From contig NC_043000.1 in the NCBI RefSeq assembly GCF_006345805.1, forward strand, positions 110,980,001 through 111,044,000: DNA of 64,000 nucleotides, in the 5' to 3' direction. The notes below the pieces were generated by a model. That model was not told where the DNA came from. It made no database searches and saw only the letters and a list, made by a program, of their open reading frames with translations. The translations under genes and the position numbers were made by a program. Shown here in pieces: positions 25,101 to 28,100 of this stretch (its first letter is position 1; the number at the start of each line of letters is the position of its first letter). The DNA comes from Octopus sinensis. Its lineage: Eukaryota.

Positions 25101-28100
25101 CTGTATCGGAATCTTGGTTAATTCTAAATAGTCCACTCTGGTTGAAGAATTCGGGCAAGGTTTCAGGTCGGACAAAAACTTCATGTCTTCATTTCACTAA
25201 TCTTGGAAGCCACCGAAGAAGTACTGCCCTTCCTCCTCTGACTTTTTCGTAAAAATGTAACTGCCATGGTGTATTCTAAGTTCGCAAATTTTGTAGGTAA
25301 CACAAAAACCATAGGCTTTGGAATTACAAATTTTTCTGAAGAATTATTTGACCTTGGAAATTTAATGAATGGTGAAACAATCAAAATCTTTTAGTTCTAT
25401 ATTTAAGGGATGAGGAATTATGTACATTATTTACATTTGACGGATATTTGTCCTCATCTTGTTTGTTAACACAACGTTTTGGCTGATATACCCTCCAGCC
25501 TACAGGCATATGGCGTAGTGGTTAAGAGCGCGGACTACTAACCCCAAGATACCGAGTTCGATTCCAGACAGGGACCATAATAATAATAATAGTAAGAAGA
25601 AGGAGAATAACATCGAAAAATACCTTAGGAATGAGAATCCAGGTTCGAAATTTCCCCAAGACAACTGATGAAGTCTGGAGGGTATATCAGCCCTCTTCTT
25701 CTTATTATTATTATGGTCCCTGTCTGGAATCGAACTCGGTATCTTGGGGTTAGTAGCCCGCGCTCTTAACCACTACGCCATATGCTTGTAGGCTGGAGGG
25801 TATATCAGCCAAAACGTTGTGTTAACAAACAAGATGAGGACAAATATCCGTCAAATGTAAATAATATAAATAATGAATCGAAATCTTTATTTATTGAAAT
25901 TTGTGTATAATTATTCCATCGGCACAATCCTCTAACTGTTATCGTTTTGCAAGTTTCATTTGATTCTGTCTTGCAGTCCTGCTGACCCCTTGCTATGTAG
26001 ACGGACAACCTGGCCGTGCCAACTACACGCAACATCACACACACGAGGTGTTCAATCCAATTTATGAAGAAACATACGAATTTCTGAGAAGATTCTTCAA
26101 GGAAATCATTGAAACATTCCCAGACCGTTATATTCATCTCGGCATGGACGAGGTTTATTACGCTTGCTGGTAAGACATGGGCGTTGAGGGTTCAAATTGT
26201 AATAAAAGACCCCGGTGAGTGTCCATGGACGTAATCTAGTAGGAACACAAGGAATATGGTAATTCATTTCATGACTGGTTCCTGGAATTCATTTTCCACA
26301 AAAAATAACGAACGAAAATACACACACACGCACACACACACACACACACACACACACACACACACACACACACACACACACACACACACACACGCACACA
26401 CACACACATCCATCATAGTAGTGACACGCTTGCGCGTAGAGAAAGTGGTAACGTATACCATGTTTTTGCTGTTTTAAGTATTAATCTTATCGTGGGCAGA
26501 AATACACACTACCATAATCTTCCCACCTTTGATTTAACGGAACATCCAGGATGTTAGAAAACCGAGAAAAAAAAAGAGAGAGAGAGAGAGAGAGAGAGAG
26601 AGAGAGAGAGAGAGAGAGTGAAGGAGAGAGAGAGGGGGTGCTCATGTTTAGCTAGTGAAGAATTCCCTTCTCCGCCCGATCAAAATCATTTTGTCGCCAT
26701 TCACGACTTCATCAATGACAAGCTCTCTCTACCCCACGTCTGCTTCAAAGCTGTTAAAAATAATAACAAAACAATAATCTCCATTGTTTTTAATTTCTGC
26801 GTTATAGAATCTATGTAACTCCTCAAATAAGTAATTAAATAAATAAATATTTGAATAAATATAGCTGTTTCTCTTCAACAGGAAATCAAACCCACATATA
26901 ATAGAATTCATGCGACAGAAAGGATTTGCCCAAGACGAGTTTTATAAACTGGAGCAGTATTATATAGAAAGGCTGATGGCGATTATCTCACACCTGGGCG
27001 GAAGTTACGTCATATGGCAGGATCCGATCGAAAATGGCGCACTGGTATAGGAATATATTTTTTTGTTGTTCTAACATGATACTTTATCATTTTCATCATC
27101 CTTTTATACATACATACAGATATATATATAAAAAATACATGTATATAAATTAGAGAAGAACCACTATGTAGCAATTCAACAATGATACGCTTAAATCATA
27201 CCATATAGAAAAAATTAAAGATACGATAAAAAATTAGCCTAGAACTAAATAAAGTTTTGATTTAGTATTATTGAATTATTCCCTGTAAGTTTGGAATCAT
27301 ATTCCCTATTATATATATATATATATATATATATTATATATATATATATCTATATATATATATATATATATATATATATTATATATATATATATATATAT
27401 ATATATATATTATATATATATATATATATATATATATATAATATATATATACACATGTATATATCTATATGTATCTATGTGAAGGTGCGTGGCTGAGTGG
27501 TTAGGCTGTAGTACTCACGATCGCTAGATTGTAGGTTCGATTCCTAGACCGGGTAGTGCGTTGTGTTGTGTTCTTCAGCAAAACACTTCATTTCACTTTG
27601 CTCCAGTCTCCCTTTCGATCAGGTGGGGAATGTTGGCCTACTCACCTTATCAGCAGGAGGCGCCATTCAAACACTAAACGATGCAAAGTGTATTGTGACC
27701 AGCGATGTGTAACAACATCCAACAGTCTGGTCAGTCACGTGATCACGTGAGATTTATCTATATATACATGCACACATACACACACATATTAATGTATATT
27801 ATGAATATGCAAGTACATAAGTATACACAACACACACTCACACGCACATATACAATAATATCGAGTAGTGAATATGAGCGCTCAGCATCGCATTTTGTGG
27901 ATAAATATTGTATATTTGTGATCCGCGTCCATTTTTTTTATGAGACTACGTGAGTTTCACGGTATAATACGAGACTTCAAGAATATTTCTTGGTTTAAAA
28001 GATACACAGATAAAGGAGAGACAATTCCTTTAGGAAACTTTGTTCCCCTCCCCCCTGTATGAGATTTGGTTTTTTGCAAGTATTTGCGTTCAAAATAGAT

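Follow-up and report, generated by a model that had tools for sequence, protein, structure and literature searches.

Pol III normally produces just short non-coding RNAs, and in mobile elements its promoters are known from non-coding passengers, namely SINEs and Cassandra-type TRIMs. Cassandra, Helenus and Ajax (TRIMp3; PMC10886601) carry in their terminal repeat a Pol III promoter derived from a small RNA, likely a captured SINE; they are described as non-autonomous LTR elements of 0.3–1.3 kb, and the autonomous partners of TRIMs are argued to need Pol II. The schistosome repeats Sm-alpha and Sj-alpha (PMC2770079, PMC6765202) unite a tRNA-derived head and a hammerhead ribozyme in one repeat and are reported to be transcribed by Pol III. 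They are non-coding, often tandem and equipped with a canonical hammerhead, and the available parts of these papers do not describe them as the end of an autonomous Penelope-like element (PLE). Non-LTR retrozymes (bioRxiv 10.64898/2026.07.22.740005; PMC7229834; PMC7761336) are non-coding hammerhead units derived from the pseudo-LTR (pLTR) of such elements and are described as tandem and promoterless.

Two autonomous elements share most of their layout with the family reported here, PAc of the anole (PMC11167929) and Penelope of D. virilis (PMC2377424). Each has one open reading frame (ORF) encoding reverse transcriptase (RT) plus, at the C-terminus, a GIY-YIG endonuclease (EN) with no Zn-finger linker, and a pLTR in which both the start codon and a hammerhead lie, with a 30–40-nt tail at one end and an inverted, 5'-truncated copy in front. 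Inverted 5'-truncated copies and one-end tails are known from PLEs (PMC8557442, PMC11167929), and in vitro work on the anole element, whose layout is the same, revealed two internal priming sites (PMC11167929). The D. virilis element has the one dissected Penelope promoter, with Inr/DPE-type elements and an intron (PMC2377424). The hammerheads of PLEs take a minimal form (Cervera and de la Pena 2014; PMC4209133), for which cleavage is expected in dimers or with the aid of a protein.

Here we describe a Penelope family of Octopus sinensis that, unlike PAc and D. virilis Penelope, carries A and B boxes in a head of its pLTR, at the point where its RNA is inferred to begin; it shows no evident intron, and the unit is free of runs of four T's. 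What is new is this tRNA/SINE-derived head within a Penelope pLTR; unlike in Cassandra, Helenus and Ajax, it sits in a protein-coding element. A tRNA-derived head together with a hammerhead, taken in an initial annotation of the locus for an undescribed combination, already occurs in Sm-alpha and Sj-alpha. Our literature search, which covered mostly titles and abstract openings outside Repbase, Dfam, subscription journals and supplements, returned no PLE with a tRNA-derived pLTR head and, within the same scope, no Pol III-transcribed autonomous retrotransposon. The available text of the octopus repeat annotation (PMC13282606) does not mention a hammerhead.

The family is represented by one hairpin element in the window, by which we mean the whole 64,000-nt stretch analysed (NC_043000.1, positions 110,980,001–111,044,000). 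The element spans 25393–25874, bounded by 13-nt target-site copies, and lies in the intron preceding exon 25977–26169 of a GH20 beta-hexosaminidase gene. It had been placed at 25399..25874; the right end stands, and the left end moves to 25393. The arms, 25417–25597 and 25694–25874, are 181 nt each (~185 bp in the initial annotation) with 96% complementarity, and their distance from the catalytic exon, given there as ~100 nt, measures 102 nt. The order of parts described there, running from an inverted tail through a forward head, array and body to an inverted head and a forward stem II with tail, is present in the sequence, with the following features:

25379–25391, no strand: left target-site duplication, 13 nt, matching the right copy at 12 of 13 positions.
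25393–25501, minus strand: inverted, 5'-truncated pLTR tail in its long form (with a ~35-nt extension), reaching back to where stem II of the hammerhead begins and corresponding to ORF codons 15–54.
25502–25576, plus strand: tRNA/SINE-derived head, which falls 4 nt short of reaching the inferred RNA start, with A box 25511–25521 and B box 25555–25565 (box consensus and spacing from PMC7279448).
25577–25608, plus strand: (AAT)n/(GAA)n array of the pLTR, whose length differs among copies.
25609–25692, plus strand: body, with the Penelope ORF start codon at 25631, the 5' strand of stem I, CTGATGA at 25665 and stem II, stopping short of GAAAC.
25693–25810, minus strand: younger inverted duplicate of 25481–25597, marked by shared private changes and a window-unique junction and holding the array, the head (25715–25789) and stem II (25790–25810).
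25811–25874, plus strand: forward tail in its short form, with AAAAC (G12>A), the GTT cleavage triplet and the 3' strand of stem I, terminating at the first reverse-transcription start region.
25875–25887, no strand: right target-site duplication, matching the left copy at 12 of 13 positions.
25977–26169, plus strand: GH20 beta-hexosaminidase exon with the HLGMDE motif (PF00728, E 1.5e-9), encoding part of the catalytic domain.

In the window element, ARAGORN called no tRNA in the head and Rfam recognised no hammerhead. At this locus the unique flank and the exon had zero read depth in 4/4 runs, DNA-like runs included.

Joining body and tail through stem II had been proposed to rebuild a minimal hammerhead, and the joined 33-nt core (CTGATGA..stem II..GAAAC) is indeed a real family sequence, with 1,997 exact matches in the 2.72-Gb genome and none for the reversed control. 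Exact 33-mers from the spacer before the head and from the head itself occur 486 and 1,313 times. Scaled for decay, with small denominators (11/43 for spacer, 6/58 for head, 8/85 for core), these counts correspond to ~1,900 spacers, ~12,700 heads and ~21,000 cores. Head and tail are linked in other copies, as the initial annotation supposed: body and/or tail lay downstream in 28 of 30 head-selected loci and neither in two, and no foreign body stood behind the head at any of the 30.

In the majority motif of the family, stem I is followed by CUGAUGA, a single extra A, stem II, GAAAC and GUU, and helix III is lacking, so that the consensus has both GAAAC and a paired stem I and the minimal hammerhead is intact in the family. 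The whole minimal type I core (C3–A9, G12–A15.1, stems I and II, palindromic 15.2–16.2, NUH triplet) is present there, whereas in the window copy it is split and carries G12>A. With the minimal type I hammerheads of PLEs (PMC4209133) the family shares the core, the extra base between 9 and 10.1, the G10.1–C11.1 pair, the palindromic CG at 15.2–16.2 and the lack of helix III. Nothing essential differs, and the family motif is predicted to cleave; the window copy is without a whole ribozyme. No read ended at the cleavage site in fragmented RNA-seq, a low-power test. Non-LTR retrozymes consist of head-to-tail units in tandem, every unit with its own whole hammerhead, and give circular RNA; the window element, palindromic and with a tRNA-derived head, differs from them in this, and a few tandem mini-units exist elsewhere in the genome. 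The mini-units (L403, L404, L395, L410, L208 and L188/L189) consist of body, hammerhead and tail with ~80–130 nt of ORF; some are tandem (the small units L403 and L404 resemble non-LTR retrozymes in this) and several are joined at short microhomology, which gives them the look of retrozyme-like derivatives. A lone CTGATGA..GAAA at ~61870–61908 of the window, minus strand, may be a decayed hammerhead or chance.

Outward from the core, the sequence leads into a protein-coding element. Upstream of the head, 5 of 30 core-selected loci shared further sequence, whose translation reads as the terminal part of a GIY-YIG-type endonuclease; when loci were selected by that sequence (n = 30, the query's own locus and two near-duplicate pairs included), the head came next in 27. 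Still further upstream came RT, and beyond it the N-terminus, into which body, hammerhead and tail lead directly through a tail-to-ORF junction that has 62 exact matches and is also seen in near-full-length copies. The segment from head and (AAT)n through body and hammerhead to tail is the pLTR of a Penelope family that is autonomous. Its unit opens with the ORF (838 codons, RT followed by GIY-YIG) and the stop, continues through a spacer of 21 nt into head and (AAT)n, and then passes by way of the start codon, the hammerhead and the tail into the ORF once more. The majority sequence is a single open frame of 838 codons that starts in the body (one copy has an open stretch of 551 codons), and the hammerhead occupies codons 12–24, where the peptide it encodes is kept in a relative at 56% identity. 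A Pfam scan of the family's own ORF fragments gave no match, and homologs carry RVT_1 (PF00078) and, in a few cases, PF01541. The motif VYSIPC..YKGET, which we take to be that of GIY-YIG, together with the homologs predicts such an endonuclease at the ORF C-terminus. RT and EN are joined without a Zn-finger-like linker of the kind present in Neptune and Nematis (PMC8557442), and because this linker is missing, the feature, rather than a tree, points to a place in the Penelope/Poseidon clade of EN+ PLEs. Two other PLE families of the genome (L243–L272 and L353–L382) have a Cys-rich RT–endonuclease linker and are Neptune-like; one of them shows a CTGATGA..GAAA motif after its ORF.

The insertions, too, carry the marks of Penelope. 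Inverted tails had been named as its hallmark, and in 44 of 46 palindromic insertions the long tail stands at one end and not at the other; a flanking repeat of ~12 nt (score ≥9) accompanies 30/46 of them, compared with 3/300 mismatched pairs. The tail thus belongs, as proposed, to an autonomous Penelope pLTR, running into the 838-codon ORF through the 62 exact junctions, and the proposed use of Penelope machinery is borne out by the RT and GIY-YIG ORF, the one-end tails and the ~12-nt target duplications. The Penelope remnants reported elsewhere in the window were not recovered: the family protein matched only the element itself, six related PLE proteins had no match in the window, and the DNA of a second PLE family had none or, among the matches listed, matched only via a flanking SINE.

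Other repeats lie in and around the window. A further LINE has its 3' ends directly in (AAT)n arrays, also in that of the Penelope pLTR (L019, L046, L055, L174), and a tandem cluster of LINE 3' pieces in (AAT)n arrays occupies 14500–18700; presumably the LINE is of R4/Dong type. In a tandem duplication of ~926 bases at 36200–38100, the same open frames appear at 36687 and again at 37613. At 53661–57863 lies a broken LINE, which we take to comprise endonuclease and RT frames, and at 10442–11545 transposase remnants, presumably Tc1/mariner-like. Thirty loci of an unrelated LINE served solely as background sequence.

The head is 67–71% similar to the heads of other SINEs in the genome; this likeness makes it likely that the pLTR acquired its head by capture from a SINE. 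As in tRNA-derived SINEs, it has A and B boxes, but a distinct non-autonomous family sharing just the 3' tail with its partner was not found, all parts being in the autonomous pLTR. The two arms of a short copy have no more private changes in common than the two arms of an ORF-bearing copy, and both kinds carry the same subfamily variants, so a separate short-copy lineage is not seen. The separate SINE of the initial annotation finds no support here. The spacer before the head (L231, L217) resembles the inverted first ten head bases with a 2-nt insertion, possibly a capture scar. Related heads also occur in other tRNA-derived SINE families (window 2683–2742 and 63215–63267; L116, L129, L173, L200, L218).

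Copies end preferentially at the start of the head. Among 24 core-selected segments with a head, 12 ended at −17..+8, 8 further inside the head, and 4 continued into the ORF; among head-selected loci the numbers were 28/35 at −20..+8, 4 further in and 3 continuing. When 59 head copies were screened more strictly, 4 were run-ons, 13 were joined head to head and 42 were joined to other partners; run-ons are undercounted here because copies with a damaged A box were missed. At eleven junctions a head is joined to an N-terminal ORF stub (40–718 nt); the restart falls at −7..+1 in nine and further inside in two, six of the nine use the same G (−6), although two of these may be one event, and untemplated A's (1–16) stand at 6/11. 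Several junctions near the head start use microhomology, and the head-to-head joins fit a cDNA that ended at G −6 and folded back. The RNA 5' end is quite probably this G, six bases before tRNA position 1, as these junctions suggest. One 5' pLTR that reaches the head start (L193) continues upstream of it, so read-through RNAs also existed.

The window copy is a dead, 5'-truncated, later rearranged intronic remnant. Its arms have in common the unique junction, G12>A, two or more changes in the head and a deletion of 3 nt, and they differ by 2 substitutions outside the microsatellite array; the arm junction has two genome matches, both inside the window. That one arm was copied from the other, as the initial annotation held, is upheld by the junction and the other shared changes; G12>A, on which that view had relied, is a CpG hotspot present in 13/63 family copies and is therefore no proof by itself. 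Ordinary palindromic copies (61 arm pairs) show the opposite pattern, with 0.008 shared and 0.031–0.044 private changes per site, so the inverted duplicate in the window copy is likely late. The element would have inserted as an inverted tail plus head, body and tail, aged by ~3% like other copies, and later gained the inverted duplicate 25693–25810 (head and stem II) by a local template switch. This gain would explain why neither strand holds a whole hammerhead. Re-transposition from antisense RNA of an older palindrome was considered as a source of the second arm and set aside; no sibling junction exists in the genome, and we prefer, without regarding it as proven, the local template switch.

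Published positions for type 2 genes of Pol III are +12 for the A box, +54 or slightly more for the B box and −31/−24 for a TATA box (PMC7279448). Counted from the inferred start G, the head has its A box at +14 (13 nt downstream) and its B box at +58; upstream, at −30..−24, a TATA-like box overlaps the stop codon and is also compatible with Pol II. The boxes fit the consensus while the cloverleaf fails to fold. The Pol III-driven SINE of the initial annotation thus survives in its first half: boxes at Pol III spacing make a Pol III start likely, while a free-standing SINE is gone. As the spacing suggests, Pol III probably initiates at the head start; that it also reads the whole ORF may be so, but we hold this tentatively. 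Over 80 distant PLE loci the A/B-box pattern matched once, away from the PLE end. Three unstranded RNA runs of one study, a low-power sample, showed no pile-up of starts or ends at head or hammerhead; many family reads in them ended at two tail positions, as embedded copies would.

Four T's terminate Pol III in vertebrates, a rule that may not hold in the host animal. The sense strand of the 2,723-nt unit has no TTTT run and 31 AAAA runs; synonymous shuffles predict 2.9 TTTT runs (P = 0.028), and recoding by the codon usage of the controls predicts 6.2 (P = 0.0013). Eleven long family copies, which are not independent, contain 5 TTTT runs in 19.3 kb, the two Neptune-like families of the genome, used as controls, 6 and 7 in ~1.55 kb, and a foreign PLE control (80 metagenome loci) at least one in each of 40/40 open segments, at 4.55 per kb or 1.16x expectation. 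Six other transposon ORFs of the window hold 8 runs where 12.4 are expected, two of the six with none. The depletion is modest, because these ORFs also fall short of expectation, and taking them as the standard would raise P to ~0.15. Low Phe content was tried as a sign of T avoidance and dropped, close and distant homologs being alike.

On balance we favour the reading that the hairpin is a dead, rearranged pLTR insertion of an autonomous Penelope whose tRNA-derived head is likely a Pol III promoter. RNA would begin at G −6, with Pol III initiating from the captured head, and the Penelope protein would prime reverse transcription at one of two internal tail sites. Priming in the 5' pLTR would give short cDNAs that span head to tail and stop where the RNA begins, so most copies would be SINE-like; priming in the 3' pLTR would give ordinary 5'-truncated ORF copies. 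On reaching the RNA end, the enzyme would snap back or jump, leaving inverted arms. Internal priming in the 5' pLTR would make the SINE-like copies identical to their masters without a separate SINE. A stronger version, perhaps correct but put forward with reserve, is that a protein-coding element swapped its Pol II promoter for the captured head, its ~3 kb being read wholly by Pol III and its ORF purged of TTTT.

The head might instead be a passenger, a SINE captured in the pLTR of an element transcribed by Pol II from the TATA-like box at −30 or by host read-through, with the pile-up of 5' ends marking a Pol II start or a stop caused by a hairpin. We consider this rather unlikely, although it draws on several findings: a hairpin of −10.8 kcal/mol at the head start may stop the enzyme or fold it back, the TATA-like box suits Pol II, the dissected Penelope promoter is of Inr/DPE type (PMC2377424), the T-run depletion is modest and partly common to other LINEs of the window, and the head is 67–71% like other SINE heads. 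A stronger hairpin in the ORF (−16.1) gathers far fewer ends, however, with 3/37 and 10/44 in its two bins against 83/131 at the head in loci sampled by different queries; the boxes fit the consensus though the cloverleaf is lost, and by eye no Inr/DPE match stands at the inferred start. A cap can leave an extra G at junctions, and the six that restart at G −6 have none.

Pol III might also make just short head-to-tail RNAs from solo pLTRs, copied in trans, while Pol II transcribes the ORF. This account overlaps our favoured explanation in its Pol III start, and it suits both the ~85% of head-bearing copies that stop at the head and the A and B boxes in every solo pLTR. We nevertheless judge it improbable: decayed sources predict shared private changes, and these stand at 0.008 per site in short and ORF-bearing copies alike against 0.03–0.044 private; head-start copies that run into the ORF exist (L201, L202, L203, L385, L393, L401); and solo copies lack the upstream TATA-like box. 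The comparison of arm pairs for shared changes gave no sign of solo copies as sources. The view of the initial annotation, an independent tRNA-derived SINE or retrozyme with a borrowed Penelope tail, is largely refuted and now very improbable. Most copies are SINE-sized with a tRNA-like head, and Sm-alpha is a precedent for head plus hammerhead, but the autonomous element contains all of the parts, the head among them, none of 30 loci has a foreign body behind the head, and the variants show no separate lineage.

If the stronger version of our explanation is true, priming in the 5' pLTR makes this Penelope its own SINE factory, with ~10,000 head-start copies, and a visible route from Penelope to SINE. 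Thousands of such Penelope pieces are liable to be filed as SINEs. A Pol III-read Penelope would, moreover, break the Pol II rule argued for autonomous partners (PMC10886601) and would prompt the question of how an 838-residue protein is made from RNA without a cap. Cleavage would make such translation hard to explain, because the ORF start codon sits 5' of the hammerhead cleavage site; the nearest parallels are R2 elements and, in RNA viruses, translation aided by ribozymes (PMC13725137). Even under Pol II, the DNA copies alone would map the RNA start and both priming sites and support internal priming in vivo.
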